In this document: positions 6,387-63,664 of the stretch, piece by piece
Layout of the letters: every line of letters starts with the position of its first letter
How positions within the stretch are numbered: position 1 is the first letter of the stretch
NCBI GenBank assembly: GCA_030645735.1
Contig: JAUSNP010000003.1
Coordinates: 167,411-231,410 of the forward strand
Direction of reading: 5' to 3'
DNA: 64,000 nucleotides
Source of the DNA: Candidatus Moraniibacteriota bacterium
GTDB taxonomy: Bacteria > Patescibacteriota > Minisyncoccia > Moranbacterales > UBA2206
Translations under genes and position numbers: made by a program
The notes under the pieces: generated by a model
Databases searched by the model: none
Seen by the model: only the letters and a program-made list of their open reading frames with translations
What the model was told of the DNA's origin: nothing

Positions 6387-6451
6387 GTCTTCGTGGTGGA
6401 ATTCCTGCCTGCCGGCAGGCAGGGGTATACACACATGCTTGAGACGCATGG
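6387..6451 (+). pseudogene. Truncated duplicate of tRNA-Leu(GAG) 5' half (acceptor-D-anticodon arms only) carrying a 20-bp palindrome insertion in the D-loop
   Basis: gtcttcgtggtggaatt[CCTGCCTGCCGGCAGGCAGG]ggtatacacacatgcttgagacgcatgg aligns to the intact tRNA at 6480 but lacks the T-arm and 3' acceptor. Confidence 0.7.
6404..6423. repeat. GC-rich 20-bp palindrome CCTGCCTGCCGGCAGGCAGG (copy 1 of 4)
   Basis: Perfect palindrome. Other copies at 14115, 14919 and 63644. Confidence 0.85.
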
Positions 6452-6479
6452 AACCCAGACAGTATTGAAATTAAAAATT

Positions 6480-6565
6480 GTCTTCGTGGTGGAATTGGTA
6501 TACACACATGCTTGAGGTGCATGGATCGTAAGGTCGTGCGAGTTCGAGTCTCGCCGAAGGCACCA
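6480..6565 (+). tRNA. tRNA-Leu (anticodon GAG), CCA encoded
   Basis: Anticodon stem catgc/gcatg, loop tTGAGgt, long variable arm, T-loop GTTCGAGTC, 3' ...cgaaggcACCA. Confidence 0.85.
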
Positions 6566-6682
6566 CAATTGTTGGCCTGCCTGCCACATTTTCAAAACAT
6601 TATTAACTACTTCCAACAGTTAGTAATGTAATGTGGTAAAATACAGTTGAGACTAATATAATATGGTTGGAAAATGAGGCAG

Positions 6683-6754
6683 GCCTGGATAGCTCAGTGG
6701 TAGAGCAGAGGATTGAAAATCCTCGTGTCGTCAGTTCAATTCTGACTCTAGGCA
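6683..6754 (+). tRNA. tRNA-Phe (anticodon GAA)
   Basis: gcctgga acceptor, D-arm gctcagtggtagagc, anticodon loop tTGAAaa, T-loop ttcaatt. Confidence 0.85.
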
Positions 6755-6812
6755 CAAATGTGATAAAATAAAAAGAGTAAAAAAATTGGTTAGCCAACCT
6801 ACGAAAGATTAT

Positions 6813-6885
6813 GGGCAATTAGCTCAATGGCTAGAGCATCTCGATTACACCGAGAGGGTTATAGGTTCGAGTCCTATATTGCCCA
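6813..6885 (+). tRNA. tRNA-Val (anticodon TAC)
   Basis: gggcaat acceptor, anticodon loop atTACac, T-arm atagg-ttcgagt-cctat. Confidence 0.85.
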
Positions 6886-6923
6886 CACAAGACAAAATAT
6901 CGCTCTCGCCGCTTGGCGAGTAT

Positions 6924-6995
6924 GCGGGTATCGTATAGTGGTTCTTATACGTCCTTGCCAAGGATGAGATGGGGGTTCGATTCCCCCTACCCGCT
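6924..6995 (+). tRNA. tRNA-Gly (anticodon GCC)
   Basis: gcgggta acceptor, anticodon loop tTGCCaa, T-arm ggggg-ttcgatt-ccccc. Confidence 0.85.
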
Positions 6996-7008
6996 CAAAT
7001 AAACTAAA

Positions 7009-7036
7009 GAATTCTCCTAAATGGAGAATTTTTTAG
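7009..7036 (+). terminator. Rho-independent terminator after tRNA cluster
   Basis: gaattctcc-taaat-ggagaatt followed by tttttt. Confidence 0.6.
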
Positions 7037-7116
7037 TTTCATGGCTTATTTAAGCCAAAAGTACGGAGTGGCTTAATTCGCGATGGCTTATCTGAGCCAA
7101 AATTCGGTCTTTGTCT

Positions 7117-7145
7117 TTGACAGGCTGGACATTTTTTGCTATACT
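7117..7145 (+). promoter_or_regulatory. sigma70-like promoter TTGACA-N17-TATACT with extended -10 (TGC TATACT); preceded by two repeated hairpin boxes atggcttatYtRagccaaaa (7040-7100)
   Basis: Perfect -35 hexamer and tgctatact -10. The same extended -10 recurs upstream of nusA and gene 37118. Confidence 0.55.
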
Positions 7146-7210
7146 CGTTAGTCACGCTGAGATCTGGTAAAGATAGGCTTAGCATGACATTTAACAATTA
7201 AGATCAATTA

Positions 7211-7783
7211 ATGCGTATCATTAGTATGCTTGTAGCGCTACCGATGCTGTGGACAACACTTGTCCCGCAACATGCCTTGGCAGCAGAATTTGCAAACACT
7301 GATGAAACAAAAACAAATTTAGAAATACAAGTTGAAAATATCATAGCCAAAGGCATCGTTCTGGGAAATCAAGACTATTTAGGAAGAGTCCCATATAACT
7401 TTCCTGGCTATGAACCGGTCAAAACAGCTGATGAATTGAAAAGAGAGAAAGTTTTGGCTAGATATAAAGATAAGCTAGCTAAAACAATCTTTCCGAAAGG
7501 ACAATTCACAATCAACGCTTCAGCTTATACGGCCGCAGCGGATGAATGTGGCAAGTCTGACGGAATCACAGCTAGTGGTTTGAAAGTCAAAGAAAACCAC
7601 ACCATCGCTTGTCCGCCTCAGTTTCCTTTGGGAACTAAGATGAAAATTGAAGGTTATGGAACTTTTGTTTGTGAAGATCGTGGGGGTGCGATCAAAGGAA
7701 ATCACATTGATATCTACGTACAAACAAAAAAACAAGCTTTCGCGTTTGGTCGAAGAAATTTGACTGCAGAAATTGTTCTGTAA
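7211..7783 (+). CDS. Secreted 3D-domain protein (MltA/YocH-like cell-wall-binding, lytic-transglycosylase-like)
   Basis: N-terminal signal peptide. C-terminal YTAAADECGKSDGITASG...IACPPQFPLGTKMKIEG...CEDRGGAIKGNHIDIYV is the 3D (three conserved Asp) domain signature. Confidence 0.7.
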   Translation: MRIISMLVALPMLWTTLVPQHALAAEFANTDETKTNLEIQVENIIAKGIVLGNQDYLGRVPYNFPGYEPVKTADELKREKVLARYKDKLAKTIFPKGQFTINASAYTAAADECGKSDGITASGLKVKENHTIACPPQFPLGTKMKIEGYGTFVCEDRGGAIKGNHIDIYVQTKKQAFAFGRRNLTAEIVL

Positions 7784-7794
7784 GAGTAAAATAG

Positions 7795-7832
7795 CAAAAA
7801 ACACCTTGGCTCACGCTGAGGTGTTTTTTTGT
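7795..7832 (+). terminator. Rho-independent terminator
   Basis: aaaaaacaccttggctcacgctgaggtgttttttt. Confidence 0.7.
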
Positions 7833-7880
7833 TGACCGAGCAATCTATTTTTGATAAGCTGGACTAGTACCGTGATGAAT

Positions 7881-7954
7881 GGTCCGATGGCCGAGTGGTT
7901 AGGCAAGGGTCTGCAAAACCCTCTACAGCAGTTCAAATCTGCTTCGGACCTCCA
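7881..7954 (+). tRNA. tRNA-Cys (anticodon GCA), CCA encoded
   Basis: ggtccga acceptor, anticodon loop cTGCAaa, T-arm agcag-ttcaaat-ctgct, tcggacc-t-cca. Confidence 0.85.
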
Positions 7955-7965
7955 ATATTATTTAT

Positions 7966-8050
7966 GCCCGGATGGTGAAATTTGGTATACACTGGAGACT
8001 TAAAATCTCCCGGGAGCAATCCCTTGCGAGTTCGAGTCTCGCTCCGGGCA
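7966..8050 (+). tRNA. tRNA-Leu (anticodon TAA), long variable arm
   Basis: gcccgga acceptor, anticodon loop cTTAAaa, variable arm cgggagcaatcccttgc, T-loop gttcgagtc. Confidence 0.85.
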
Positions 8051-8091
8051 CCTAGTAACATAACTTTAGTCCAATTAAAAAAAGAATCATT

Positions 8092-8679
8092 CTAGTGATT
8101 CTTTTTTATTTTTTGCAAAACTTTGGGAATTTTTTGGAAATCCTTTTTGAGTGTTTCTCGCAAACTGCCATTGTAGAGTGCTGCTGCTGGATGATAGAGA
8201 GTGAAGATGTTTTGTGAACCAATTTGCGCAAGATTTATTTTTGTAACTTGGCCGTGGATTTCAGAAATCTTGGCCTTTGGCAGAAATCTTTCCATGCTGT
8301 GGCGGCCGAGAGTGATGATGAGTTTGGGCTGGATGATTTGGATTTGTTGCAAGAGCCATGGCCAGCAAGTGGCGATTTCTTCAGGCGACGGGTCGCGATT
8401 TTCGGGTGGGCGACATTTGCAGACATTGGCGATGTAGACGTCTTCCCTTTTCAATTTTATTTCGGCTAACATTTCATTCAAGAATTTTCCAGCCGCGCCG
8501 ACAAAGGGAGTCCCACTTGCATCTTCCTTTTTGCCTGGCGCCTCGCCGATAAACATAATCTCCGCTTCGGAATTGCCTGAACCGAAAACGACCTGAGTGC
8601 AACCCTCTCTGAGGGAGCATTTAGAGCATTGTTGCATTTGCTCGTTTAGCTTATTTAATTTTTGCAGTTTAGTTTGCAT
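8092..8679 (-). CDS. Uracil-DNA glycosylase, family 4
   Basis: CSKCSLREGCTQVVFGSGNSEAEIMFIGEAPGKKEDASGTPFVGAAGKFLNEML is the UDG family 4 signature. Confidence 0.85.
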   Translation of the reverse strand: MQTKLQKLNKLNEQMQQCSKCSLREGCTQVVFGSGNSEAEIMFIGEAPGKKEDASGTPFVGAAGKFLNEMLAEIKLKREDVYIANVCKCRPPENRDPSPEEIATCWPWLLQQIQIIQPKLIITLGRHSMERFLPKAKISEIHGQVTKINLAQIGSQNIFTLYHPAAALYNGSLRETLKKDFQKIPKVLQKIKKNH

Positions 8680-8805
8680 GATTGTTTGGTTGCAGGTAAA
8701 AAGTTATTGGCTGTAGGGCTGGTTGTAGGTCATGGGTCATAAGTTGTATTATTTATGACTTATGACCTTAGACCATTCCTATTTCTAATGACTTCTTGCT
8801 TATGA

Positions 8806-9336
8806 CTAAGATAGATCGTGGATTCTGTGTAATTCAAATTTTCCAGTTTCTGTGTTCCAAGTGGCGAAAGTGGGTGGGTAGAAATCGCCGGTGGCGTTGC
8901 CAGGATTGAGCAGGGTGCAGTTGCCGACAACTTCAGTCCAAGGTTTGTGAGTGTGCCCGAAGAAAACAAAATCATATTTGCCAGTCTCAGCTAACTCTTT
9001 GGCTTCGCGCGGAAAATGGATGAAGGCAATTTCTTTGTTGTCTAATTTTATTTCACCAAAATTTTCATAAACAAAAGCATTCTTATATCTGATTGCGCCG
9101 TCAGCTGATTTGCTAATATGTTCAAATGTTGACATGTTCATTTGATCTTTGTCCATATTGCCAAAAACATAGAAAATTTCGCCAGCAAAATTGTCGCAAA
9201 AAAAATCCAACGAATCTTTCGTGGCCAAATCGCCACAACAAATGATCCTCTCAATTTTTTCTTGCGCGCAAAAATCCAAAACTTTTTTCAAGTTGGTTTC
9301 GTTGTTGTGGATGTCGGAGATGATGGCTATTTGCAT
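8806..9336 (-). CDS. YfcE/MJ0936-family metallophosphoesterase
   Basis: MQIAIISDIHNN...GDL...GNMD...GHTH motifs of calcineurin-like phosphodiesterases. Confidence 0.75.
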   Translation of the reverse strand: MQIAIISDIHNNETNLKKVLDFCAQEKIERIICCGDLATKDSLDFFCDNFAGEIFYVFGNMDKDQMNMSTFEHISKSADGAIRYKNAFVYENFGEIKLDNKEIAFIHFPREAKELAETGKYDFVFFGHTHKPWTEVVGNCTLLNPGNATGDFYPPTFATWNTETGKFELHRIHDLS

Positions 9337-9349
9337 ATATTTTTTTGAT

Positions 9350-10174
9350 TTATTTTGTGCGAAAAGATTTTAGCAGTTTTATATCAATCACAACTTCATC
9401 ATGTTCAGTTTCCAAAATCATATCAATATTTTTTTCTTGGGCGAGGGCGACAATTTTTTTGAAAGCTTCGGTGCCGATGAGACCTTGGCCGATGTGGGCG
9501 TGGCGATCTTTGTGGGAGGCGCATTCAGTCAGAGAATCATTGGCGTGGATGAGTTTGATTTTGGAAAGACCTATTTCTGAGTCAATTTGTTGCAAAGTTT
9601 TTTCGAAGTCGCGCCAATCATAACCGGATGCAAATGAGTGTTGGGTGTCTATGCAAATGCCATTCAACTTGGGATGGTTCACGTTTTTGATAATCTCGGC
9701 AATTTGTGAAAAAGTTGAGCCGATTATTTTTCCCGAGCCAGCGCTGTTTTCAATGAGAAGTTCGGCGGAGCCAGTGTAACCATCCAAAACTTTTGTGAGC
9801 ATCTCGGAAGTTTTTTTGGTTGCGTCTTCTTCAGAAAGTTCGCCAGCGCTGCCAAGGTGGGTCATGACAAATTGAGCGCCCAAAAGACTGGCGCGTTCCA
9901 ATTCATCGCGCGCCACGCTGATGGAGCCATAGCGGATGCGATTGTTGGCGGAAGCAAAATTGATATAATACGGCGTGTGAATGACAAAATTTGTGATTTT
10001 GTTTTTTTGCATTTCAGCTGAGAAGTTTTCCAAAAGTTCTCGAGTCAATTCTGGGGCTTTGCCGCCTTGAGGAGAGCGGGTGAAAATCTGAAAACATTCC
10101 GCGCCCAAATCAGCGGCTCGTTGTGGGGCATTGAAGATTCCGCCTGCAATTGAAACGTGACAGCCGATATTCAT
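9350..10174 (-). CDS. nfo: Endonuclease IV (AP endonuclease family 2)
   Basis: MNIGCHVSIAGG...FQIFTRSPQGG... TIM-barrel Nfo pattern over 274 aa. Confidence 0.85.
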   Translation of the reverse strand: MNIGCHVSIAGGIFNAPQRAADLGAECFQIFTRSPQGGKAPELTRELLENFSAEMQKNKITNFVIHTPYYINFASANNRIRYGSISVARDELERASLLGAQFVMTHLGSAGELSEEDATKKTSEMLTKVLDGYTGSAELLIENSAGSGKIIGSTFSQIAEIIKNVNHPKLNGICIDTQHSFASGYDWRDFEKTLQQIDSEIGLSKIKLIHANDSLTECASHKDRHAHIGQGLIGTEAFKKIVALAQEKNIDMILETEHDEVVIDIKLLKSFRTK

Positions 10175-10235
10175 AAGAGTGGATTAACTGCTTATGACTA
10201 TATTCTAGCATATAATAACAATGTGTACTTCGTAC

Positions 10236-10455
10236 GGTTCGCCACTTTCTTTAGACATGTTCTTGCCCTTACTTTTTCTTTCCGCAAGAAAAAGTAACAA
10301 AAAGAACTCTCCGCCGGCTCGTACAAAAATAAATTTTCAACTTATTCGCGAAAAAATACTGGTTGCCCCGCGCCGGACCAGTATTTTTTAGCGCTCATAA
10401 GTTTCAATTTATAGTTTTGTACTACGCAAGGCGGAAGGGTTTTTAAAACAAAAAA
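10236..10455 (+). repeat. Modular intergenic repeat, copy A (diverged; carries an internal GC hairpin bidirectional terminator)
   Basis: Starts ggttcgccactttcttt like copy C. Shares ccggctcgt, ttattcgc, cgctcataa...aattta...acgccaagg with the other copies. Its reverse complement matches 59245..59410. Confidence 0.65.
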
Positions 10456-10469
10456 AACTAGAAAAACCA

Positions 10470-10645
10470 ATTCGCCCATAACGAAGTGCGTTTCTAAATT
10501 TCAGCGCATGAGCGTTAAGAAATTTTTTGCTACTCCTTTTAGCGGAAAGTCGTCCCTAAAATTTTAGCGAATAAGCTAGAAATTTAGACAGCACGAGTCT
10601 GGGCAGCAGTTTCTTTTCGTCCACTTTCTTTGCTGCCAAAGAAAA
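10470..10645 (-). repeat. Modular intergenic repeat, copy E (near-exact reverse complement of copy D at 58997..59200)
   Basis: gtgcgtttctaaatttcagcgca...ctttctttgctgccaaagaaaatggacac is the reverse complement of the 59 kb copy with few mismatches. Confidence 0.8.
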
Positions 10646-10677
10646 TGGACACTCTGTTCTTTGGTAAAAGAAGAATA

Positions 10678-11637
10678 TTAAATGATTTCCCATCCATCCT
10701 TAGTTTCTCGGATAGTGCCTTTGATTTCAAAGCCAGAAGCGAGTTTGTGACCACCACCACCAAATTGGGCGGCGATTTTGGAGACATCTACGCCTTTGTA
10801 TTCTTCAGAGCGCAGGCTGCCCTTGATGACGCCTTCTCCGCGTTCAGAGAGGATGAGGGCGAATTTGGTGCCTGGCACAGTGTTGAGGATGCCGGAAACT
10901 TGAGCAATGTCTTCGGAGCCTGCACCACATTCTTCCAAATCTTTTTGAGTCAGTACTGAAATGATCATGCCGTTAGTTGGATTGATCTTGGCTTTTTCAA
11001 AAGCTTTGCCCCAGAGTTTCAAAGTCGAAATATTTTTATTAGAAAAAGTTGATTCGACTATTTTAGCCAAAGGTGCTCCGCGTTTCATAAGTTGGGAAGC
11101 AATTTCCATGACTTTTGGCGTGGTGTTGGAATGTTGAAATGAACCAGTATCAGACATGATGCCGAGCAATAGAAAGGTTGCCATCTTGCGATTGATTTCA
11201 ACTTTATTGAAAATAAAAAAGTCATAGATAAGCTCACAAACAGAAGAATATTTAGCATCCAGAATGGTGATGTCAGCTTTGACAGTGATGTCTGGATGAT
11301 GATCAATGATAGCGGTGATTTGATTGTCGGCAACGGTATCAATGATTTTGTGAAAGCCACGCTCCACGCTGTCAGCGCCAATGATTAGATTATACTTTTT
11401 CAAATCAAGATTCTCTGGATTGATGAATTTTTCTTCAGAAAAAGAGCGCAAATATTCAGGGAAGGCGTCATAGCAAGTAATGTCAGCTTTTTTGCCAAGG
11501 GTGCGAGCATATTCTTTGAGCGCCAAGACGGAACCAGTTGTGTCTCCATCTGGTCTGGAATGCGCAAAAAGCAGAATCTGTTCAGATTCCTTGATAACAA
11601 AGTTGAGGGTATTAAATTCTTTGGAAAACTTAGCCAT
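10678..11637 (-). CDS. nrnA: DHH-family phosphoesterase NrnA (oligoribonuclease / pAp phosphatase)
   Basis: HSRPDGDTTGSVLAL...DHH...GGGGHKLASG motifs (DHH + DHHA1). Confidence 0.8.
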   Translation of the reverse strand: MAKFSKEFNTLNFVIKESEQILLFAHSRPDGDTTGSVLALKEYARTLGKKADITCYDAFPEYLRSFSEEKFINPENLDLKKYNLIIGADSVERGFHKIIDTVADNQITAIIDHHPDITVKADITILDAKYSSVCELIYDFFIFNKVEINRKMATFLLLGIMSDTGSFQHSNTTPKVMEIASQLMKRGAPLAKIVESTFSNKNISTLKLWGKAFEKAKINPTNGMIISVLTQKDLEECGAGSEDIAQVSGILNTVPGTKFALILSERGEGVIKGSLRSEEYKGVDVSKIAAQFGGGGHKLASGFEIKGTIRETKDGWEII

Positions 11638-11698
11638 AACTCTTTAATTTACAAAGCCATAATAAAATGCGACTCTTGTCGCATTTTAAGTTGTGTAT

Positions 11699-12028: not shown

Positions 12029-12035
12029 AATATTG

Positions 12036-12235: not shown

Positions 12236-12236
12236 A

Positions 12237-14018: not shown

Positions 14019-14114
14019 TTTTTTTAAATAATCAATAACCAAGAAACAAATAACAAACAATATTCAATTATCAAATTTCAATATACAAACTGTTGGTTAT
14101 TGGAATTTGAGATT

Positions 14115-14134
14115 CCTGCCTGCCAGCAGGCAGG
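14115..14134. repeat. GC-rich palindrome CCTGCCTGCCAGCAGGCAGG (copy 2), with flanking 10-bp direct repeat TTGGTTATTG at 14093-14102 and 14138-14147
   Basis: Read directly from the sequence. Confidence 0.8.
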
Positions 14135-14189
14135 TGTTTGGTTATTGTATCTTGTTTCTTGTATCTTGCGTAGTGATTATTTTTAAAAC

Positions 14190-14705: not shown

Positions 14706-14804
14706 AAAAATGGCTTATTTGTATATTAAAGCTAGCATTTATAGGGCGTTATGTAAAGGTCGCCTACGTAAATCATCTGAATGATTTGCTTCAGCGAACT
14801 AAAG

Positions 14805-14891
14805 CGGAGAGTACAGGAGTTGAACCTGTGAGGAGATTGCTCCCCAACCGCATTTCGAGTGCGGCGCGTTAGACCACTCTGCCAACTCTCC
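14805..14891 (-). tRNA. tRNA-Ser (anticodon CGA), long variable arm
   Basis: Reverse complement ggagagt-tg-gcagagtggtctaacgc...cTCGAaa...tggggagcaatctcctc...acagg-ttcaact-cctgt-actctcc-G. Confidence 0.85.
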
Positions 14892-14918
14892 GTATTTTTT
14901 TAGTGACAACTTAGTGCC

Positions 14919-14938
14919 CCTGCCTGCCGGCAGGCAGG
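14919..14938. repeat. GC-rich palindrome CCTGCCTGCCGGCAGGCAGG (copy 3)
   Basis: Identical to copy 1; lies immediately adjacent to the tRNA-Ser gene. Confidence 0.85.
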
Positions 14939-44800: not shown

Positions 44801-45412
44801 GTTTCCGCTGGAGACAAAACAACCACTGTCAAAATCGAAATGGCAGGCAAAACTGCGACTGTCAAAGAATATGAAATTCCAATGGGAAGCACAGTCAAAG
44901 TGGCGCAAGGTGATTTGGTTGGCAAAGGCTCAAAACTTTCTGAAGGAAACATTGATCTCAAAAAGCTTTACAAAATCATGGGATGGGAAGCAGTACATAG
45001 ATATATCGTACAAGAAATTCAAGAAATCTATGCTTCTCAAGGTGAAGGAATCAATGACAAGCATATCGAAGTTATCATCAAGCAGATGTTTAGTCGATTG
45101 CAAATCACTGAGTCTGGAGCTACAACCTTGATGGGTGGCGATATCATTGAAAAAGAACAATTCAGAGAAGCCAATGAAAAAGCCAAAGCTGATGGTGGAG
45201 AGCTGGCAACTGGAGAAGAATTGTTGATGGGAATCACGAAAGTGGCTCTTTCAACTGAAAGTTTCCTATCCGCTGCTTCTTTCCAAGAAACCGCTCGAGT
45301 GCTCATCAACGCTGCTGTTGAAGGCAAGGTTGATCACTTGAGAGGACTCAAAGAAAACGTAATCATCGGAAAATTGATTCCAGCTGGAACTGGATATCGA
45401 TCAGATAAGTAA
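41837..45412 (+). CDS. rpoC: DNA-directed RNA polymerase subunit beta'
   Basis: 1191 aa; zinc finger CYCGKYKRIRYKGIVCDKCGVEV; catalytic NADFDGDQM. Confidence 0.98.
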   Translation: MDPITKVSDFNSVRLKLAGPNQILEWSHGEITKPETINYRTQRYEKDGLFCEKIFGPSRDWECYCGKYKRIRYKGIVCDKCGVEVTRSSVRRDRMGHIQLSVPVSHIWFLRGVPSKIGLALGMSPQELEKVIYFSNYIILSVDDSAREKALAQLEQEFKTKQKEIAKLEGNAKENKTEELKGIYRTAKEELKGLQRFQIITEVEYFNLSTRYGQVFSAGIGAEAIRRILENLDMKAEIELLKKDLANEEIIDKKKILKRIKLFQGFINAELRLEWMLPTVIPVIPPDLRPMVALDGGRFATSDLNDLYRRIINRNNRLRKLIEIGAPEVITRNEKRMLQEAVDALFDNSARRGQVSVTASTGQRRALRSLADTLKGKQGRFRQNLLGKRVDYSGRSVIVVGPKLKLHQCGLPKKMALELFKPFIINKLIERELAYNVRSAGKMVESETEEAYEILDEIISHHYVMLNRAPTLHRLSIQAFQPVLIEGKAIQLHPMVCSAFNADFDGDQMAVHVPLTDKARWESENLMLSKRNLLKPASGEPIISPTLDMVLGCYYLTHILKGANGEGKIFSNFDEAVMAYELGAVDVRAEVKVQHEGVVLTTSVGRVKLNEIIPSGIEYLNYEMTKKELKLLVAKVLEVCGAEETALFADKIKDLGFAAVTKAGLSWGMADLNVPAEKKDIMNDAETKVGVIKQQFNMGLLTEGERKSQVIEIWNNAKNKITDAVRAGLDKEGPVYSMVYSKARGSESVVVQMAGMKGLMAGPTGETIELPIKSCFKEGLNVLEYFISTHGARKGMADTALRTATAGYLTRRLVDVSQDIIVREEDCKDKDGSYLYKSDSDRIGQSFATRVIGRVAMDNIAHPISGEVIVGKGELISKEQGEAIEKANLDKIKIRSIVSCKTPRGVCQKCYGLDLGRGHLVQKGQAVGIVAAQAIGEPGTQLTMRTFHIGGVAGTDITQGLPRVEEIFEARPPKGESVISEVDGKVVEVSAGDKTTTVKIEMAGKTATVKEYEIPMGSTVKVAQGDLVGKGSKLSEGNIDLKKLYKIMGWEAVHRYIVQEIQEIYASQGEGINDKHIEVIIKQMFSRLQITESGATTLMGGDIIEKEQFREANEKAKADGGELATGEELLMGITKVALSTESFLSAASFQETARVLINAAVEGKVDHLRGLKENVIIGKLIPAGTGYRSDK

Positions 45413-45436
45413 AGACGCAAGATATTGCGTCTCTAC
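45409..45436. repeat. REP-like hairpin 1 (GTAAAGACGC-aagatatt-GCGTCTCTAC), overlaps rpoC stop codon
   Basis: One stem mismatch relative to the GTAGAGACG...CGTCTCTAC family. Confidence 0.6.
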
Positions 45437-45483
45437 GAAAAAAGAAAAACCGCTCAGGAATGGGCGGTTTTTTTGTTGGAAAA

Positions 45484-45512
45484 TTGACATGAAATATATT
45501 GGTGGTATTATA
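45484..45512 (+). promoter_or_regulatory. sigma70-like promoter TTGACA-N17-ATTATA upstream of RAYT gene
   Basis: ttgacatgaaatatattggtggtattata. Confidence 0.45.
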
Positions 45513-45542
45513 TCATCGAATGTGTGTGCATATGAAACAATG

Positions 45543-45570
45543 GTAGAGACGGATTGCAATCCGTCTCTAC
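45543..45570. repeat. REP-like hairpin 2 (GTAGAGACGGATTGCAATCCGTCTCTAC), perfect palindrome
   Basis: Read directly from the sequence. Confidence 0.8.
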
Positions 45571-45592
45571 AGGCAAAATAAAAATCACAACC

Positions 45593-46171
45593 ATGTCTAA
45601 CAAATACAAAAGCCAATATAAAATCGAATCATCGCGATTGGCTGGATATGATTATTCCCAGAATGGAATGTATTTCGTGACGATTTGTACAAAAGGTCGG
45701 GAAGAATTTTTTGGTAGGATAGAGGAGGGGGAAATGGTGTTGTCGGGGATTGGGGAAATTGCCAATCAATTTTGGCAGGAAATTCCGAAACATTTTCCAA
45801 AGGTTATTTTAGATGAATATGTAATAATGCCAAATCATTTACATGGGATTGTGGAAATTAACAACGATAGATTGAATGTGGATGCCCGTAGAGACGAGGC
45901 AATGCCTCGTCTCTACACCGGCCAACACCTCGAGATGTCTGAAATATCACCAAAACCAGGTTCATTATCGGTTATTCTGGGATCATTTAAATCAATTGTT
46001 TCAAAAACCACTAGAAAACAATTAAATCCTGTCACCTTCGCCTGGCAACCTCGTTTCTACGACCACATCATCCGCAACGACGTTTCTCTCAACAAAATCC
46101 GTGAATATATTCAGACCAATCCGGCGATGTGGGAACGGGATCGGAATAATGTCGAAAATTTGTGGATGTAG
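45593..46171 (+). CDS. REP-associated tyrosine transposase (RAYT; IS200/IS605-like Y1 HUH transposase)
   Basis: SSRLAGYDYSQNGMYFVTICTKGRE N-terminus; HUH motif MPNHLHGIV; conserved Tyr region WQPRFYDHIIR; flanked by cognate REP hairpins. Confidence 0.75.
   Translation: MSNKYKSQYKIESSRLAGYDYSQNGMYFVTICTKGREEFFGRIEEGEMVLSGIGEIANQFWQEIPKHFPKVILDEYVIMPNHLHGIVEINNDRLNVDARRDEAMPRLYTGQHLEMSEISPKPGSLSVILGSFKSIVSKTTRKQLNPVTFAWQPRFYDHIIRNDVSLNKIREYIQTNPAMWERDRNNVENLWM
45888..45916. repeat. REP-like hairpin 3 (GTAGAGACGAGGCAATGCCTCGTCTCTAC) located in-frame inside the RAYT CDS
   Basis: Encodes ...RRDEAMPRLY... between the HUH and Tyr motifs. Confidence 0.8.
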
Positions 46172-46182
46172 GCGTTTGCCAG

Positions 46183-46211
46183 GTAGAGACGCCCCGCCGG
46201 GGCGTCTCTAC
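46183..46211. repeat. REP-like hairpin 4 (GTAGAGACGCCCCGCCGGGGCGTCTCTAC) just 3' of RAYT
   Basis: Read directly from the sequence. Confidence 0.8.
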
Positions 46212-46298
46212 CTCCCCTAGCTCATAATGGCTGGTTTTCGGTTTAGCTAGATTTGTGTTAAAATAAAGTAAATAAACAATCTTCTAATATCTTTTAAT

Positions 46299-54934: not shown

Positions 54935-54970
54935 AACTCTCTTTATTTCCCGCCTCTTTTTTGGCGGGTT

Positions 54971-55267: not shown

Positions 55268-55350
55268 CTTGTATGTCGTAAGTAATTTTTGAATTAAAGA
55301 TATATTTGTCCGGGGGGGGGGGTCTTAAAAGTAGAAGAATTATTGAAATT

Positions 55351-57556: not shown

Positions 57557-58915
57557 ATGAAAGAGTCCATTTTTAAGGCCTATGACATTCGGGGGATTTA
57601 TCCGAGTGAAATCAATGAATTGGATGTGTATAAAATTGCCACAGCGTTTTGTGAATTTGTGAAACCAAGTGAGGTGGTGATTGGAGCGGATGTGCGCCTG
57701 TCTTCACCATCTTTGAAAAAAGTGGCCATCAAGGCTGTGACAGATGCAGGCATTCGGGTGATTGATGTGGGAGAAATTTCGACTGATATGCTATATTTCT
57801 CGGTGGCGCACTATGGTTATGCGAGTGGTTTTTCCTTAACGGCGTCACATAATCCGAAAGAATACAATGGAATGAAGTGCGTGCGTGAGGAATCGATTCC
57901 CATCTCATCCGATAGTGGTCTATTCGAAATTCGCGATAGAGCCTTTGCCATGGAACTGAGCGAAGATGTTTTGCAAGGTGAAATCAACGAATCCTTGGTT
58001 GAGAAAAAAGATATTCTGGAAGACTATGCAGTCAAGATGCGATCGTTTGCGGACTTTTCTAAATTCAAGAATTTCAAAATTGCCGCTAATCCAAATTTTG
58101 GTGTGGCTGGACGCGCGCTGACAAAGGTTTTGGAAGGGACTCAGATTTCTGTAGAAAAATTGAACTATGAACCAGATGGCAATTTTCCCAAGGGTCGTCC
58201 AGATCCATTGATTCCAGAAAACCGTGATGAGCTTTCCAAATTGGTTGTGTCCACTGGCTCAGACTTTGGCGTGGCGTGGGATGCTGATGCGGATCGATGT
58301 TTTTTCTTCACCGAAAAAGGCGAATTTATTGAGGGTTATTTCATCACAGCTCTTTTGGCGAAAATATTTTTGCAAAGACAATCTGGGCAAAAGATTATTC
58401 ATGATACGCGCTTGACTTGGGCAATTGAGGATATCGTGAAAGAAAATGGTGGTGTGGATATTGCCACTAAGGCTGGGCATTCATTCATCAAGGAAAGAAT
58501 GCGCAAGGAAGATGCGGTGTTTGGTGGTGAGATGAGCGCTCATTATTATTTCCGCGACTACTGGTTCTGTGATAATGGCATGGTGCCGTTGGTGATGATG
58601 ATGGAATTTTTGTCGACTCAGGAAAAGACTTTGTCAGAGATTATGCATGAGATGTTTTGGCAGAAATATTTTGTCAGTGGTGAAATCAACACGCCAGTGG
58701 CGGATGTGAAAGCTGTTATTGAAAATGCCAAGCGAATTTATTCAGATGGCGCTGTGAAGATTGATGAGACTGATGGTATCTCAATTGATCATGCTGATTG
58801 GCGGTTCAATTTTCGTGGATCAAATACCGAGCCACTTATTCGCTTGAATGTTGAAGCGAAATCGCAATCGTTGATGGAGGAAAAGACCAAAGAAATGCTA
58901 GCGCTGGCTAAATAG
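57557..58915 (+). CDS. Phosphomannomutase/phosphoglucomutase (alpha-D-phosphohexomutase)
   Basis: Active-site loop TASHNPKEYNGMK; GVAWDADADR metal-binding loop. Confidence 0.88.
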   Translation: MKESIFKAYDIRGIYPSEINELDVYKIATAFCEFVKPSEVVIGADVRLSSPSLKKVAIKAVTDAGIRVIDVGEISTDMLYFSVAHYGYASGFSLTASHNPKEYNGMKCVREESIPISSDSGLFEIRDRAFAMELSEDVLQGEINESLVEKKDILEDYAVKMRSFADFSKFKNFKIAANPNFGVAGRALTKVLEGTQISVEKLNYEPDGNFPKGRPDPLIPENRDELSKLVVSTGSDFGVAWDADADRCFFFTEKGEFIEGYFITALLAKIFLQRQSGQKIIHDTRLTWAIEDIVKENGGVDIATKAGHSFIKERMRKEDAVFGGEMSAHYYFRDYWFCDNGMVPLVMMMEFLSTQEKTLSEIMHEMFWQKYFVSGEINTPVADVKAVIENAKRIYSDGAVKIDETDGISIDHADWRFNFRGSNTEPLIRLNVEAKSQSLMEEKTKEMLALAK

Positions 58916-58935
58916 TCTATCTAGTCTATATTCAA

Positions 58936-58966
58936 AAAACTCATCCGAAAGGGTGAGTTTTTACTT
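58936..58966 (+). terminator. Rho-independent terminator
   Basis: aaaaaactcatccgaaagggtgagttttt. Confidence 0.7.
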
Positions 58967-58996
58967 ACACGTCATTTTTATTTTATAAAAATTACA

Positions 58997-59200
58997 GAGT
59001 GTCCATTTTCTTTGGCAGCAAAGAAAGTGGACGAAAAGAAACTGCTGCCCAGACTCGTGCTGTCTAAATTTCTAGCTTATTCGCTAAAATTTTAGGGACG
59101 ACTTTCCGCTAAAAGGAGTAGCGAAAAATTTCTTAACGCTCGTGCGCTGAAATTTAGAAACGCACTTCGTTATGGGCGAATCGGATTTTTAAAATTTTTA
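58997..59200 (+). repeat. Modular intergenic repeat, copy D
   Basis: gtccattttctttggcagcaaagaaagtggac hairpin; ...ctcgtgctgtctaaatttctagcttattcgctaaaatt...aacgctcgtgcgctgaaatttagaaacgcac. Its reverse complement is copy E at 10470..10645. Confidence 0.8.
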
Positions 59201-59244
59201 ACTTTTATTTTTTGTTTAAAAACCATCACGCACTCGCGGAATAC

Positions 59245-59410
59245 CAAGATACAAATTGAAACTTACGAGCACTAAAAAATGCTGGTCCGGCGCGGGGCAA
59301 CCAGCATTTTTTTGCGAGAAAGTTGAAAATTTGTCTTGGTATGTAGCTGTGCGGCCTTTTTCTTTTTTGCCACTTTTCTTTTGGGAAAAGAAAAATGGCG
59401 AACAGTTTTA
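59245..59410 (-). repeat. Modular intergenic repeat, copy F (reverse complement of copy A; contains bidirectional GC hairpin terminator aaaaaatgctggtccggcgcggggcaaccagcattttttt)
   Basis: Matches the reverse complement of 10236..10400 at about 85-90% identity. Confidence 0.7.
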
Positions 59411-59482
59411 TTTTGTAAAAAATAAAACAGCTGAACAATCAAAAAAGCTACTTGCGTAGCTTCCCAGTATTTTGTAGAGAGA

Positions 59483-60508
59483 TTAGATTACAAATCCCAC
59501 TCGCTTTTTGACTTCTGTTAGTTTTTGCTGGGCGATGGGACGGACTTTGTCGGCGCCATCTTTTAAAATTTGTAGAACTTCATCATCGCTGATAGCTTCA
59601 ATCTTAGCTTGCAAAGGTTGCAAGAAATTGACGACTACGTCGGCTAGATCATTTTTGAAATCACCATAACCACGGCCGACATACATTTTTTCAATGTCAC
59701 CAGTTGATTTGTTAGACAGCAAAGAATAGATATTGATCAAATTTTTCAAAGCGGGTTTGCCCGCCTCGACTCGCGGAGACGCATCGTCGACGCGAGGCGG
59801 GTCATCACGATAGACAATCTCAGAGCCAGAGTCGGTCACGGCTTTTTTGATTTTCTTGCGGATGATTTCTTCGCTATCAGTCAACGCAATATAATTATAT
59901 TCAGACTTGGCAGACTTGCTCATTTTCTTGGAAGCATCGTCCAAGCCCATGATGCGCATGCCTTCTTTTTTCACAAAGTGTTCTGGGATGATGAAGGTGT
60001 CGCCGAATTTTTTGTTGAAACGATTAGCTAGCGTGCGAGTGATTTCAATGTGTTGCAATTGATCTTCACCAACCGGCACAACTTCAGTATTGTAGAGAAG
60101 AATATCAGCAGCCATCAACACTGGATAATCAAAGAGTCCGACGCTGGCACTTTCTTTGCCTTCTTTTTGTGATTTGTCTTTGAACTGAGTCATTTTTTCC
60201 AATTCAGGCATTTTGGCAATGGTGTTCAAAATCCAAGCCAATTCAGAATGTTCGGCCACATGTGATTGCACGAAAATTGAAGATTTTTTTGGATCAATGC
60301 CAGAGGCCAAATAAATCTTGGCAATTTCAATAGTCTTTCGGCGCAATTCGGCCGGATCTTGGGGGACAGTGATGGCATGCAAATCCACTACGCAAAAAAT
60401 GGATTCAAATTCATCTTGCAATTTGACCCAGTTTTGAATGGCGCCCAGATAGTTGCCGAGATGTAAGTTGCCAGATGGCTGGATGCCGGAAAAGATTCGT
60501 TGTTTCAT
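59483..60508 (-). CDS. trpS: Tryptophan--tRNA ligase
   Basis: IFSGIQPSGNLHLGNYLG (HIGH-type) and KMSKS motifs. Confidence 0.93.
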   Translation of the reverse strand: MKQRIFSGIQPSGNLHLGNYLGAIQNWVKLQDEFESIFCVVDLHAITVPQDPAELRRKTIEIAKIYLASGIDPKKSSIFVQSHVAEHSELAWILNTIAKMPELEKMTQFKDKSQKEGKESASVGLFDYPVLMAADILLYNTEVVPVGEDQLQHIEITRTLANRFNKKFGDTFIIPEHFVKKEGMRIMGLDDASKKMSKSAKSEYNYIALTDSEEIIRKKIKKAVTDSGSEIVYRDDPPRVDDASPRVEAGKPALKNLINIYSLLSNKSTGDIEKMYVGRGYGDFKNDLADVVVNFLQPLQAKIEAISDDEVLQILKDGADKVRPIAQQKLTEVKKRVGFVI

Positions 60509-60515
60509 TTTTTTA

Positions 60516-60591
60516 TTATTCCGGACTTAAGCCGGAATCTAATCAATTAAAATTAGTTTCGCGACTAGATTCCCGTTTCCACGGGAATGAC
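60516..60591. repeat. MITE-like element copy 2 (TATTCCGGACTTAAGCCGGAATCTA ... GATTCCCGTTTCCACGGGAATGAC)
   Basis: Same TIR-like ends and two-hairpin organisation as 51346..51443. Lies in the trpS upstream region. Confidence 0.55.
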
Positions 60592-60749
60592 AATCGCAAG
60601 TCTAATACTAAAATATCATTAAAATAGGCCTGTTGGCAACCCAGCACTAACTTTGTACAATATCACCTACGGTGACGTGCAAAGTTAATGCTGGGCGAGT
60701 CAAACAAAAAATCACCCTCGCGGGTGATTTATGTTTTTATTAGACGAGA

Positions 60750-61052
60750 TTATTTTATCTCGCCATCCATCTTGCGAAGCATTGAGCGCATCTCGAGGAT
60801 GCCAGCCAAAAAGAAGACAATGAAAATTATTTTGGCTGTGACGACGGTAGCTTGAGCCAGATCATTTCCTTCGAGTGTGAAGATTGGAATAATTTCTGAA
60901 ACAGTGAAAGCAATGATGGCAACTAGTAATAATTTAAATGAAATATCTAATTTTTTCTCAACTCGCCAGACTACGCCGAAAGTATAAGCAATCGAAAAAA
61001 AGGCAATGATAACAATGAAAAGATGGGAAAGAATTATTATTGAATCGTTCAT
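60750..61052 (-). CDS. Small integral membrane protein (3 predicted TM helices)
   Basis: 100 aa hydrophobic ORF; 4-bp overlap with the upstream gene. Confidence 0.45.
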   Translation of the reverse strand: MNDSIIILSHLFIVIIAFFSIAYTFGVVWRVEKKLDISFKLLLVAIIAFTVSEIIPIFTLEGNDLAQATVVTAKIIFIVFFLAGILEMRSMLRKMDGEIK

Positions 61053-62494
61053 CTACCCACCCCCTTTCTTTTAGTGACAAAGCCATGTCTGCGCAAATAA
61101 TTTTCCGTAATTTGAAAAAGTGCATGCCGGCTTTGATAATATTCAATGCTGAGTAGAATGATGAAAAATAGGAAAAATAGCAGGCTTAGCCAGCCCAAGC
61201 TTTGCATCAGCTGAGTGAGGGAAACAGTCGTTGTTCCAGCGCTGAAAAGTGGCAATTCTTTGATTTGAAAAAAGGCTTCACCTGAAATGAAATCACTCCC
61301 ATCAGAAGTTTGGACGATGACTCGATATTTGCCAGCTTTAGCTAAAATTGGAATGGCCAAATTTTTAGTGAGAGAGTTGATTTGGGTTGGATTGATTTTT
61401 TCAGAGTTTTCAAAAATAATCTGTCCATCAGTGCTGAGCACAGTATAAGTAAAGTCAAATTCTTTATCAGGGAAAGGTAGTGTTTTTTTGAGAAGATCTA
61501 TATTGATAGATAAATCACTGCCAGCATAAACAGCATGCTCAGGATTCTTTACAGAAACCTCAATGGAAAAAGGTGTAGAGGGGATGGCATTTAGCGATAC
61601 ATCAGATGGAAAGCTAGATTGTTTTTTTTCTTGGGTTTTCTTCTTGTCTTTGTTATCGTGCGTATCTTTTTGCGGACTCACTGCAGTTATTTCAGAAATA
61701 AGTTCAAATTGAAAAGAATCCGAAGCCGTGATTGTTGAGTCATTCGGGTCTGTAGCAATGGTATATAGAGTGTGATTCCCAAGGGCTAGTGTCACAGGAC
61801 ATTCCCATGACCAGTAGCCATTGTTGTTGGCGTAAGTGGTCGCGGTGATGGCAGGGCCACTGTGTAAGATGATGGATATTTTAGCATTAGGGATGTTAGT
61901 CAGACCAGAAAAAGATGGTTGATTGTTGGTTGTTTGTGGATTGCCAGCATAAGCTTCGATGCTTTGCAATTGAAAGGTTGTTATTTTCTGAATTGGAAGC
62001 AGATTTGAAATTCCGCATTCGGAAGGTGTCGCAATGGTGATGGGTTGAGAAATTGCAAAGCCAGGACCCATTGGCCCGTGTGCCGTGACAACATAAGAGT
62101 AGGCGGTGTTTATGCTGACCTGATTGTCTATATATATTGGCCCATTCGTGCCAGTTATCAAAATATCCCCATCCCTACTGATATCAAAGTTTTCCGAATT
62201 TTCATCGTTTGGCCAATTAAGCATAATGCCTAAATTGTCATTACTGCAAATGGCCTCGCCAGAAACAACTGGTTCAATTGGAGAATCAAGAACCTTGCCT
62301 ACCAGCGTAATTGTTTCATCAGCTAAGGCTTTGGATTTAGTTTGCATATCAGCAAGCATAAAAGCCGGAGTGAAAATTGCTGACAAAGCGACATAGAGCC
62401 CAAACGAAATCAGAAAAAAAACAGAATGCATTCGCGCAACTCGTCTTAGTTTACTAATTTTTTTGACACCTTTTTTCATAACTACATTATACAC
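61049..62494 (-). CDS. Large secreted/surface protein with N- and C-terminal TM anchors (Ig-like beta-rich middle)
   Basis: 481 aa. N-terminal TM anchor. Ser/Thr/Asn-rich beta-type segments. Lys-rich linker. C-terminal TM + basic tail. Confidence 0.5.
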   Translation of the reverse strand: MYNVVMKKGVKKISKLRRVARMHSVFFLISFGLYVALSAIFTPAFMLADMQTKSKALADETITLVGKVLDSPIEPVVSGEAICSNDNLGIMLNWPNDENSENFDISRDGDILITGTNGPIYIDNQVSINTAYSYVVTAHGPMGPGFAISQPITIATPSECGISNLLPIQKITTFQLQSIEAYAGNPQTTNNQPSFSGLTNIPNAKISIILHSGPAITATTYANNNGYWSWECPVTLALGNHTLYTIATDPNDSTITASDSFQFELISEITAVSPQKDTHDNKDKKKTQEKKQSSFPSDVSLNAIPSTPFSIEVSVKNPEHAVYAGSDLSINIDLLKKTLPFPDKEFDFTYTVLSTDGQIIFENSEKINPTQINSLTKNLAIPILAKAGKYRVIVQTSDGSDFISGEAFFQIKELPLFSAGTTTVSLTQLMQSLGWLSLLFFLFFIILLSIEYYQSRHALFQITENYLRRHGFVTKRKGVGR

Positions 62495-62518
62495 TAAAAA
62501 ATGTGATATAATAAGACT

Positions 62519-63613
62519 ATGAAAAATATCTTCAAAGAAATCAAAACAAAACTAAAATTTTTGAAAACAATTTTGCCACACGCAACTTTTGTTTTTTTGT
62601 TGGTGATGCCAGCCAGTACCAATTATAAATTGAAAGATTATGGCTTCGGCAATGGTGGCGCGAGCAATGCTACCTCAACCAACTATGCCATGGAGGTGAT
62701 TGCCGGTGAGCAAAGTGCGGGCAAACTGACAGGTGTCGCCTATAACGCTGGAACCGGTCTGTCTTTCACTAATCAAGCCAATGTGCCAAGCGCACCAACT
62801 TTCAGCAATCCGAGCAATTATTATAACAAACTACAAATCATTCTCAACACTTCTGGCAATCCAACTGATACCAAGTATGCCATCGCCATCAGCACGGACA
62901 ACTTTGTGACGACCAATTATGTCAAAAGCGACAACACTGTTGGCGCAACCCTGATCCTTGCAGATTATCAAACATATGCAACGTGGGGAGGTGGCAGTGG
63001 TTTCTATGTAATTGGTTTGACTGCCGGCACAACATATAAAGTGAAAGTCAAGGCGATGCAAGGTAAATTCACCGAAACTGGCTATGGTCCAATTGCAACA
63101 GCAGCGACAGTGAATCCAACCTTGTCTTTTGATATTGATGTTTCATCCACGGATTCAAAGACGGCTCCACCATTCACAATCAACTTTGGTAGTTTGCCAG
63201 TGAACACTGTGACTGATAGTCCGCAAAAAATTTGGGTAGATTTTGCGACCAATGGTGAATTGGGCGGAAAGGTGTATGTGGCTGGACAAAATGCTGGTCT
63301 CACGAGCGCGACAAAGAGTTACACAATTTCCGCGATGACGGGGAATCTAGCAGGAGCCTCAGAAGGTTTTGGTGCACAAGGCTCATCTGTAGCGCAAAGC
63401 TCAGGCGGACCGCTGACAGTAGCAACTTTGTATGATCAAATTGGCAGCACAGTTGGTATTGTGGATTCTGCAATGCGAGAAATGTTTTCTTCAACTGGAC
63501 CAATCGTTGGTGGTCGCGGATCTTTTTTATTGAAAGCCAAAACATCGACTATTACGCCGTCAGCCACTGATTATAGCGAAATATTTACTGTAATTGCTTC
63601 AGGAAATTTTTGA
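62519..63613 (+). CDS. Secreted hypothetical protein (signal peptide, Thr/Gly/Ser-rich beta-rich)
   Basis: 364 aa; N-terminal hydrophobic signal ...FVFLLVMPAST. Confidence 0.5.
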   Translation: MKNIFKEIKTKLKFLKTILPHATFVFLLVMPASTNYKLKDYGFGNGGASNATSTNYAMEVIAGEQSAGKLTGVAYNAGTGLSFTNQANVPSAPTFSNPSNYYNKLQIILNTSGNPTDTKYAIAISTDNFVTTNYVKSDNTVGATLILADYQTYATWGGGSGFYVIGLTAGTTYKVKVKAMQGKFTETGYGPIATAATVNPTLSFDIDVSSTDSKTAPPFTINFGSLPVNTVTDSPQKIWVDFATNGELGGKVYVAGQNAGLTSATKSYTISAMTGNLAGASEGFGAQGSSVAQSSGGPLTVATLYDQIGSTVGIVDSAMREMFSSTGPIVGGRGSFLLKAKTSTITPSATDYSEIFTVIASGNF

Positions 63614-63643
63614 AAATACAGCATAGGATATTGTTAAATAATC

Positions 63644-63664
63644 CTTGCCTGCCGACAGGCAGGT
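63644..63664. repeat. GC-rich palindrome CCTTGCCTGCCGACAGGCAGG (copy 4, variant)
   Basis: Same arms as copies 1-3, with one extra T and a GAC centre. Confidence 0.75.

Follow-up and report, generated by a model that had tools for sequence, protein, structure and literature searches.

REP and REPIN elements are dispersed, non-autonomous short palindromes that insert without target duplication, and the small nuclease associated with them, RAYT, is encoded by a gene flanked by its own palindrome (PMC3116915). The same features characterize PAL, a 20-mer (CCTGCCTGCCGGCAGGCAGG) composed of two abutting 10-bp arms, CCTGCCTGCC and GGCAGGCAGG, which is present in four copies in a 64-kb chromosome segment of a Moranbacteria-like member of the Patescibacteria. 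This segment is referred to here as the window, and its positions are given in window coordinates. As an insertion element, PAL has both a fixed sequence and a fixed length, leaves no target duplication, strongly favors tRNA stem-loop junctions, and is tightly associated with a tRNA-embedded GIY-YIG cassette. It is probably a mobile, non-autonomous palindrome coupled to this tRNA-invading cassette and its mini GIY-YIG protein. PAL differs from REP/RAYT in having a GIY-YIG partner instead of an HUH tyrosine transposase, in being a perfect 20-mer without the GTAG head, in being identical across phyla rather than species-specific, and in targeting tRNA stem-loop junctions.

A GIY-YIG gene among tRNA genes is also known from T4-like phages, in which SegB spreads by break repair with co-conversion of the flanking tRNA (PMC2330249) and can drive segmental amplification (PMC13096335). 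This amplification recalls the tandem arrays seen for PAL cassettes, and in both systems the GIY-YIG gene is lodged among tRNA genes. Unlike PAL cassettes, however, Seg genes are not known to have a companion palindrome or a duplicated tRNA fragment. Seg proteins are larger and possess a separate DNA-binding domain, whereas the cassette proteins are domain-only polypeptides of ~77–90 amino acids whose nearest relatives of solved structure are UPF0213/SLX1 and not I-TevI.

Stand-alone UPF0213/SLX1-like proteins, such as BH0048 and EF2693, belong by sequence to the same domain family as the cassette proteins. SLX1 cleaves branched DNA near the branch point (PMC6902002), which fits the insertion of PAL at stem-loop junctions. 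A 2006 survey of the GIY-YIG superfamily covered prokaryotic SLX1-like proteins and a recent insertion into HsdR, with no tRNA genes or palindromes (PMC1564403). UPF0213/SLX1-like proteins have been predicted to be repair enzymes, and the literature searched gives them no link to tRNA genes, palindromes or mobility. Likewise, no description of the PAL 20-mer, of the LPAGRQ peptide that it encodes in frame, or of the GIY-YIG/tRNA-fragment context was found in the literature searched.

Tiny insertions tolerated within genes are familiar from other lineages. The Rickettsia palindromic elements of Ogata (2000) reportedly insert in frame into proteins, and the 21–27-nt cyanobacterial repeats of Elhai (2008) are said to lie often within heptamer repeats. 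Yeast mitochondrial GC clusters are short GC-rich hairpin insertions with presence/absence polymorphism (PMC4478555). Like all three, PAL is a very small GC-rich insertion that RNA and protein genes can accommodate. Each of these families, however, is confined to its lineage and is not known to have an enzyme partner, and most are longer, whereas PAL combines one invariant cross-phylum sequence with a recurrent nuclease-gene partner. The palindrome-associated elements of the IS200/IS605 group share with PAL the absence of target duplication, their insertion being hairpin-dependent and into single-stranded DNA, but they require two different subterminal hairpins and a conserved 4–5-nt 5′ target. 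In PAL there is just one hairpin, and A is only weakly preferred at position −1.

GIY-YIG cassettes at tRNA genes

In L042 (MEWB01000001), a complete WWE3 genome, PAL lies in a 5′ fragment of tRNA-Lys, and a 79-amino-acid GIY-YIG open reading frame (ORF) and an intact tRNA-Lys gene come next, in that order. This order is typical of the cassette layout, which consists of tRNA(1..x), PAL, tRNA(x+1..y), a short spacer, the ORF and an intact tRNA. The tRNA duplication begins at position 1, the upstream flank is unduplicated in single cassettes, and PAL splits the 30–46-bp tRNA repeat into two short blocks. Mirrored cassettes also occur, in which the intact tRNA and the ORF precede a 3′ fragment whose anticodon loop or T-loop contains PAL. 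Cassettes re-insert, yielding the tandem arrays that are observed. Some cassette fragments differ from the adjacent intact tRNA, and therefore either the fragment or the intact gene was imported.

The decisive test of the coupling is a reverse search that starts from the nuclease. Metagenomes were scanned with a five-sequence GIY-YIG alignment, and the best 80 of 519 relatives (77 distinct ORFs) were analyzed, with PAL counted at up to two mismatches unless described as exact. PAL was present at 59 of these 80 cassette loci and exact at 45. It lies 10–78 nt 5′ of the ATG (median 26) at 52 loci and shortly 3′ of the stop codon at 12, and a tRNA gene is adjacent at 65, usually 0–25 nt past the stop. 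At almost all cassette loci without PAL, its place is taken by a PAL variant or another GC-rich palindrome; the variants found in cassettes include 19-mer, centre-expanded and nested forms.

In the opposite direction, GIY-YIG ORFs or their remnants were found at 8 of the 155 loci recovered by searching genomes and viral contigs for PAL, five of them within ~150 nt of the palindrome and three farther away. No other protein family recurred near PAL in an all-against-all comparison of ORFs within 1.5 kb at 120 loci. The sequence-only reading had suggested the recognition site of a homing or HNH-type nuclease; the association with a homing-type nuclease is borne out, but the family is GIY-YIG and not HNH.

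The cassette proteins consist of the catalytic domain alone, which is matched by the Pfam GIY-YIG model, and they contain no separate DNA-binding domain of the kind present in I-TevI and Seg. NCBIfam holds no model for them. Their closest solved structures are UPF0213 proteins (1zg2, 1ywl), followed by SLX1, while the match to I-TevI is marginal (E = 0.01). Pairwise identity among the best 80 ranges from 40 to 67%, with a median of 51%. The mismatch rate is 1.7% within PAL versus 6.4% in the flanking tRNA fragment. PAL is scattered over the whole protein tree, and the clades of this tree track tRNA type. A strict co-evolution of protein and palindrome was considered and is unsupported by the tree.

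PAL seems to be the commonest of several such GC-rich palindrome families. Other palindromes at tRNA-fragment positions or near PAL include CCCGCCCG...CGGGCGGG and TCCGCC-N4-GGCGGA, at L044:790–830, 5′ of the ORF in L201, L224 and L227, and at L012, L019, L080, L098, L192 and L200. The protein family also extends to other settings. An ORF of the same family lies within a 23S rRNA gene (L107:4758–5042), and a separate GIY-YIG clade without PAL (L184, L204, L206 and L230; ORF near 1501 or 942) occupies the loop of a non-tRNA hairpin, CCGGGTAGTGAAA...TTCTACTACCCGG.

An alternative is that PAL is an independent selfish hairpin, served by other machinery, that strongly prefers tRNA-like stem-loop junctions and piles up in cassette fragments as the main tRNA-like DNA that cells can spare. 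This explanation would accommodate the lack of a nearby nuclease gene at most PAL sites, the other palindrome families at the same positions, and a PAL type that does not strictly follow the protein tree. PAL-bearing tRNA fragments without an ORF, as in the window, L001, L018, L034, L243, L246 and L249, are moreover at least as common as those with one. Yet virtually all cassette tRNA fragments are interrupted by a GC-rich palindrome (PAL at 59 of the 80 loci), so neutral build-up would have to be extremely efficient. PAL also stays exact while fragment and protein diverge, and no alternative enzyme recurs near it. An independent hairpin is unlikely.

Insertion sites

The insertion point was analyzed in 41 tRNA modules whose flanks can be aligned to the intact tRNA. 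In each of these, PAL adds exactly 20 bp and no target duplication, and the flanks stay in register with the intact tRNA. The insertion point x falls at 20–24 in 26 modules, at 14–15 in seven and at 31–32 in five. Of the 41 insertions, 38 are no more than 2 nt from a stem-loop junction; none is in non-tRNA spacer. The junctions used are the D-loop/3′ stem, the position just after the D-stem 5′ strand, and the anticodon stem/loop boundary, with T-loop and variable-loop sites represented by mirrored cassettes and phage tRNAs. PAL is found in tRNA D-arms at L001, L018, L034, L042, L097 and L115, in a T-arm fragment at L044, and in the variable loop at L124 and L147. The tRNAs at L097 (D-loop), L147 (variable loop) and L170 (position 9) are complete or near-complete apart from PAL, and nearly all other tRNA-borne PALs reside in truncated copies.

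Beyond the modules, clean 20-bp insertions can be recognized at L005 and L082 by comparison with adjacent uninterrupted repeat copies. PAL is nested near the centre of another PAL at L021 and L047, and solo copies with no trace of a cassette also occupy hairpin loops and heptamer repeats. The flanks contain no conserved word or tetranucleotide, although A is enriched at −1 and −3 and T is depleted at −1. Inverted repeats flanking PAL are about threefold enriched relative to a control that includes coding DNA. The search for flanking direct repeats proposed by the sequence-only reading gave little: an abutting repeat is present at 5 of 133 PAL sites, is always 7 bp long, and lies within heptamer tandem repeats where examined.

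Two other definitions of the element were discarded. A search with the 18-mer core adds only two stretches to the 35 viral ones, and therefore the ends of PAL are fixed at CC...GG; an 18-bp core is rejected as the true unit, which is 20 bp long. A classical miniature inverted-repeat transposable element does not apply either, as PAL has no fixed-length duplication and consists of 20 bp of abutting arms with no internal sequence, against roughly 50–500 bp for such elements.

Interruptions of intron-like appearance are present in two other tRNA genes that do not involve PAL in the account given here. In L251 (~2400–2700, after rplS), a tRNA-Phe(gaa) has an insertion of ~300 nt in the anticodon loop, and in L154:830–1000 a phage tRNA-Lys is broken after GGTTGGCT.

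PAL in the window and its relatives

In the window, whose GC content is ~0.40, ten tRNA genes are accompanied by rplS, infB, rpoB, rpoC and ftsK. The DUF4446 protein encoded there shares 88% identity with a Candidatus Moranbacteria protein. Four PAL matches are present, compared with none in 100 dinucleotide-preserving shuffles (Table 1). All four copies predicted from sequence are real and all are intergenic, as had been proposed, but only those at 6404 and 14919 are perfect palindromes. A half-site noted after tRNA-Leu at 6575 is also present, with its true position one base further on. Rfam 15 models matched only tRNA at positions 6300–6700 of the window and at six cassette loci.

Table 1. 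Coordinates of PAL copies and associated tRNA features in the window
Feature	Position	Strand	Remarks
Promoter-like site	6342-6371		upstream of the PAL-bearing tRNA-Leu fragment
tRNA-Leu(gag) 5′ fragment, positions 1-17	6387..6403	+	identical to 6480-6496
PAL copy 1	6404-6423	.	exact; D-loop of tRNA-Leu fragment
tRNA-Leu(gag) fragment, positions 18-46	6424..6452	+	27/29 identical to 6497-6525
Unrelated spacer, 27 nt	6453-6479		between tRNA-Leu fragment and intact gene
Intact tRNA-Leu(gag), functional copy	6480..6565	+	ARAGORN and Rfam
Half PAL, CCTGCCTGCC	6576-6585	+	10 nt past the tRNA-Leu(gag) 3′ end
PAL copy 2	14115-14134	.	1 mismatch (G11>A); solo, DUF4446-infB spacer
Intact tRNA-Ser(cga)	14804..14891	-	3′ (minus strand) of the PAL-bearing fragment
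GGCAC, D-stem 3′ strand of tRNA-Ser-like fragment after PAL	14914..14918	-	GGCGC in L243
PAL copy 3	14919-14938	.	exact; D-loop/3′-stem junction of tRNA-Ser-like 5′ fragment
tRNA-Ser-like 5′ fragment, positions 1-24, GGAAGAGTGGCCGAGTTGGTTGAA	14939..14962	-	24/24 identical in L243
PAL copy 4	63644-63663	.	2 mismatches (C2>T, G12>A); solo

Copies 1 and 3, at tRNA-Leu(gag) and tRNA-Ser(cga) respectively, show the cassette layout without its ORF. The tRNA-Leu fragment corresponds to positions 1–46 with exactly 20 extra bases after position 17, and it stops after the anticodon arm. The identities on both sides of copy 1 (Table 1) substantiate the earlier suggestion of a clean 20-bp insertion at 6404. 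Among relatives, the tRNA-Leu locus of L246 is arranged as in the window, with ~8 of 45 bases after PAL changed and PAL unchanged, whereas that of L251 is empty, with no PAL-bearing fragment. In L249 and L250, the resident tRNA-Leu gene is split, with a foreign tRNA-Leu(gag) in the middle; a PAL variant lies at position 12 of the 5′ piece, and an exact PAL lies in the T-loop of the 3′ piece.

Copy 3 is arranged on the minus strand as GGAAGAGTGGCCGAGTTGGTTGAA, PAL and GGCAC, followed by 27 nt and then tRNA-Ser(cga). Both copies 1 and 3 had been described as abutting tRNA genes; the adjacency holds, but copy 3 does more than abut, as it lies inside a tRNA-Ser-like fragment. This fragment is not derived from the adjacent tRNA-Ser(cga). 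The same fragment with an exact PAL is retained in L243, whose DUF4446 protein is 72% identical to that of the window, despite a diverged spacer. The site is empty in L241. In the closest relatives, L239 and L240, PAL is missing and the one tRNA-Ser(cga) present belongs to a different sequence type.

PAL sites are thus polymorphic among Moranbacteria relatives, and the same locus has been struck repeatedly. The comparison of empty and filled sites called for by the sequence-only reading shows the tRNA-Ser and tRNA-Leu loci of relatives to be empty, filled or differently filled, which upholds its proposal of a minimal mobile element family. This presence/absence polymorphism at orthologous sites is one mark of free-standing GIY-YIG homing cassettes. 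Another, a GIY-YIG ORF beside the target gene, is found in the family and not in the window.

The tRNA-Ser locus is a rearrangement hotspot. In L244 (1–541) and L245 (1–245), a larger insertion bearing long inverted repeats takes its place and truncates the tRNA; the DUF4446 protein of both is identical to that of L243.

Copies 2 and 4, like the half copy at 6576, are solo and decaying. Copy 2 is flanked by the arms of a 37-nt imperfect inverted repeat and is seen in the window only, with no counterpart among relatives, whose spacers are not alignable. The identical 10-mers around it (TTGGTTATTG, 14093–14102 and 14138–14147) had been taken as a target-site duplication. They are real, but TTGGTTATTG recurs in inverted orientation at 14033–14042 within a T/G-rich repetitive spacer, and the duplication is not upheld. 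Copy 4 sits 30 nt past the stop codon of an ORF at 62519–63613. The half copy is probably a truncated PAL and is missing from L246, the closest relative at the tRNA-Leu locus. Its interpretation as the far end of a unit bounded by terminal inverted repeats was rejected, given its absence from L246 and the finding that other half copies are mostly degenerate or centre-expanded PALs.

The perfect dyad and the stable hairpin of PAL (about −7 to −9 kcal/mol as DNA) are features that a host regulatory motif, such as a terminator or the operator of a dimeric protein at fixed positions, would also have. Copies 2 and 4 match a terminator pattern loosely, and only on the strand opposite the adjacent genes; copies 1 and 3 do not match it. 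A terminator or nucleoid-protein site, both raised by the earlier reading, is not supported, because the T-rich tails lie opposite the strand of the neighboring genes and copies occur inside tRNA fragments and coding sequences. Positions are also polymorphic among relatives, and copies appear in coding frames and in unrelated phyla. A regulatory role is extremely unlikely.

Distribution across phyla and viruses

A scan of one genome per species (596 Gb) yielded more than 120 species-representative stretches among the matches listed, nearly all of which contain an exact PAL. By our own calculation, ~0.5 occurrences would be expected by chance. The hosts belong to the Patescibacteria, Bacteroidota, Omnitrophota, Planctomycetota, Gamma- and Deltaproteobacteria, Thermodesulfovibrio and Chloroflexi. 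Cultured Bacteroidota with PAL include Winogradskyella, Flagellimonas, Longitalea and Flavivirga, among them Winogradskyella echinorum KCTC 22026, Flagellimonas yonaguniensis and Longitalea luteola. In a scan of IMG/VR, PAL was present in 35 viral-contig stretches, with a maximum of six copies on one 29.5-kb contig. A viral contig (L156:3916–4125) contains at least 10 tandem 21-bp units of CATGCCTACCGGCAGGCAGGC, a PAL variant amplified as a minisatellite.

A short perfect palindrome found mostly in metagenome-assembled genomes invites the suspicion of a sequencing, adapter or assembly artefact. However, PAL appears in the output of several assemblers, in a complete-chromosome record and in cultured isolates. 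Copies 1–3 were recovered at 100% identity in independent Logan contigs of run SRR13727526, a second assembly that reproduces PAL. Diverged copies, in-frame copies in conserved proteins and the stereotyped context likewise argue against an artefact, the likelihood of which is negligible.

PAL inside protein genes

Where PAL lies in frame within a protein gene, it is always read as LPAGRQ. Such copies were found in FtsK, ScpB, a sugar dehydratase, an HhH protein and ribosomal protein S6, and in the first four of these the Pfam matches run across the insertion. In S6, the only in-frame case compared with homologues, the closest homologues are six residues shorter at the insertion point (SDG|LPAGRQ|GEI versus SDG|GKI), and the net gain is 18 nt. 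Frameshifting or translational bypass at coding-region copies was considered and rejected, as the copies are in frame and the net gain in S6 is 18 nt.

In one locus (L068:2751–4892), both PAL and a GIY-YIG domain are in frame within a 714-codon open frame. From its sequence, this frame presumably resembles a type I restriction specificity subunit. The combined insertion recalls the GIY-YIG insertion described in HsdR (PMC1564403).

These solo copies bear on the view that PAL is immobile by itself, a selected part of the cassette that spreads with it by gene conversion and leaves solo copies as leftovers. The selected role could be that of a hairpin guarding the end of the nuclease mRNA, a repeat-breaker against ORF deletion, or a plug making the copy uncuttable. 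Such roles are compatible with the fact that PAL always occupies the disabled tRNA copy, on whichever side of the ORF this lies, with the position of the fragment between a promoter-like site and the tRNA, with the division of the 30–46-bp repeat into two short blocks, and with the seeming ability of any GC-rich palindrome to substitute. Precise, cassette-free solo PALs in unrelated protein genes, hairpin loops, heptamer repeats and other PALs are nevertheless hard to reconcile with it, and a purely structural role would not hold 20 of 20 bases across phyla. We regard this view as quite unlikely.

Proposed mechanism and significance

If PAL is coupled to the cassette, as we consider probable, the SLX1-like nuclease may cut stem-loop junctions of tRNA genes that are extruded as hairpins or single-stranded. 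The cassette would then spread by break repair, with universally conserved tRNA sequence serving as homology arms, and PAL would be what is inserted where the disabled tRNA copy was cut. Short conversion tracts, or transfer that depends on the nuclease, could be the source of solo PALs. As far as the host is concerned, PAL is in all likelihood selfish or neutral.

Several points weigh against this coupling. GIY-YIG enzymes are hydrolytic, with no known strand transfer that would bring a constant 20-mer to non-homologous sites such as protein genes. An intact and presumably cleavable tRNA copy persists in the cassette, which makes simple "immunity by disruption" an incomplete account. For about 95% of the PAL sites recovered from genomes and viral contigs, no nuclease gene is present within ~150 nt, and the ~28 kb read of the six-copy viral contig contain none of the GIY-YIG type. 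In the window, neither jackhmmer nor a profile from the 80 sequences detected a GIY-YIG gene or a remnant of one, and the link of its four PALs to the nuclease therefore rests on architecture and relatives. Within one protein clade, a different palindrome is found at a different position (L201 versus L160, L163 and L191). In addition, the query used to rank the best 80 loci came from a PAL-bearing locus, and this set may over-represent a PAL-associated subfamily.

A more far-reaching and tentative interpretation is that PAL and the mini GIY-YIG protein constitute a new mobile-element class, in which an SLX1-like structure-specific nuclease mobilises a 20-nt hairpin. The nuclease would cut the base of the PAL hairpin as well as target stem-loop junctions (in tRNA genes, hairpins or PAL itself), and the hairpin would then be moved or copied without target duplication. 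There is a substantial chance that PAL represents a new class of hairpin element. If so, PAL would be the smallest known mobile DNA, with a host range of many phyla and phages because tRNA targets and homology arms are universal.

The coupling of PAL to the cassette, if it holds, would make PAL one of the smallest and most widespread pieces of mobile DNA known and would provide a biological role for the large, uncharacterised family of UPF0213/SLX1-like mini-nucleases. It would also account for pseudo-tRNA fragments, tandem tRNA-linked arrays and tRNA allele replacement in small genomes, as well as for the odd LPAGRQ insertions in conserved S6, FtsK and ScpB. PAL is a simple annotation marker for such events, and a nuclease of this small size with specificity for a defined hairpin or stem-loop junction could become an experimental tool. 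Because cultured Bacteroidota isolates carry PAL, the coupling is directly testable.

RAYT locus and other features of the window

The window also encodes a RAYT-like IS200-type Y1 transposase (45593–46171; Pfam Y1_Tnp, 26.2 bits). Its gene is flanked by GTAGAGACG-loop-CGTCTCTAC palindromes at 45543–45570 and 46181–46213. A further copy, at 45888–45916, lies in frame inside the gene and is read as RRDEAMPRLY, and a left-truncated copy adjoins the rpoC stop codon (45411–45437). The region 45411–46213 is a classical REP/RAYT arrangement that is unrelated to PAL.

The presence of this transposase gene, together with the insertion of REP elements as short palindromes without duplication (PMC3116915), would be in keeping with PAL being a REP-type element moved by a RAYT/IS200-like Y1 (HUH) transposase, as the sequence-only reading had also entertained. 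The palindrome that flanks the window's Y1 gene and interrupts it in frame, GTAGAGACG...CGTCTCTAC, is however of a different family. PAL lacks the GTAG head and has no conserved 4–5-nt target on its 5′ side, and no Y1 transposase recurs near it at 120 loci. An origin by RAYT-type transposition is very unlikely.

Downstream of PAL copy 4, a perfect match to a sigma-70-type promoter (TTGACA, 17 nt, TATAAT, with a TG extension) is present at 63724–63752, upstream of an ORF that begins at 63824 and extends beyond the end of the window. Elsewhere, a 17-bp inverted repeat follows tRNA-Gly at 7001–7039. It is succeeded by two copies of ATGGCTTAT(T/C)T(A/G)AGCCAAAA, at 7041 and 7083, so that the whole repeat region spans 7001–7102.

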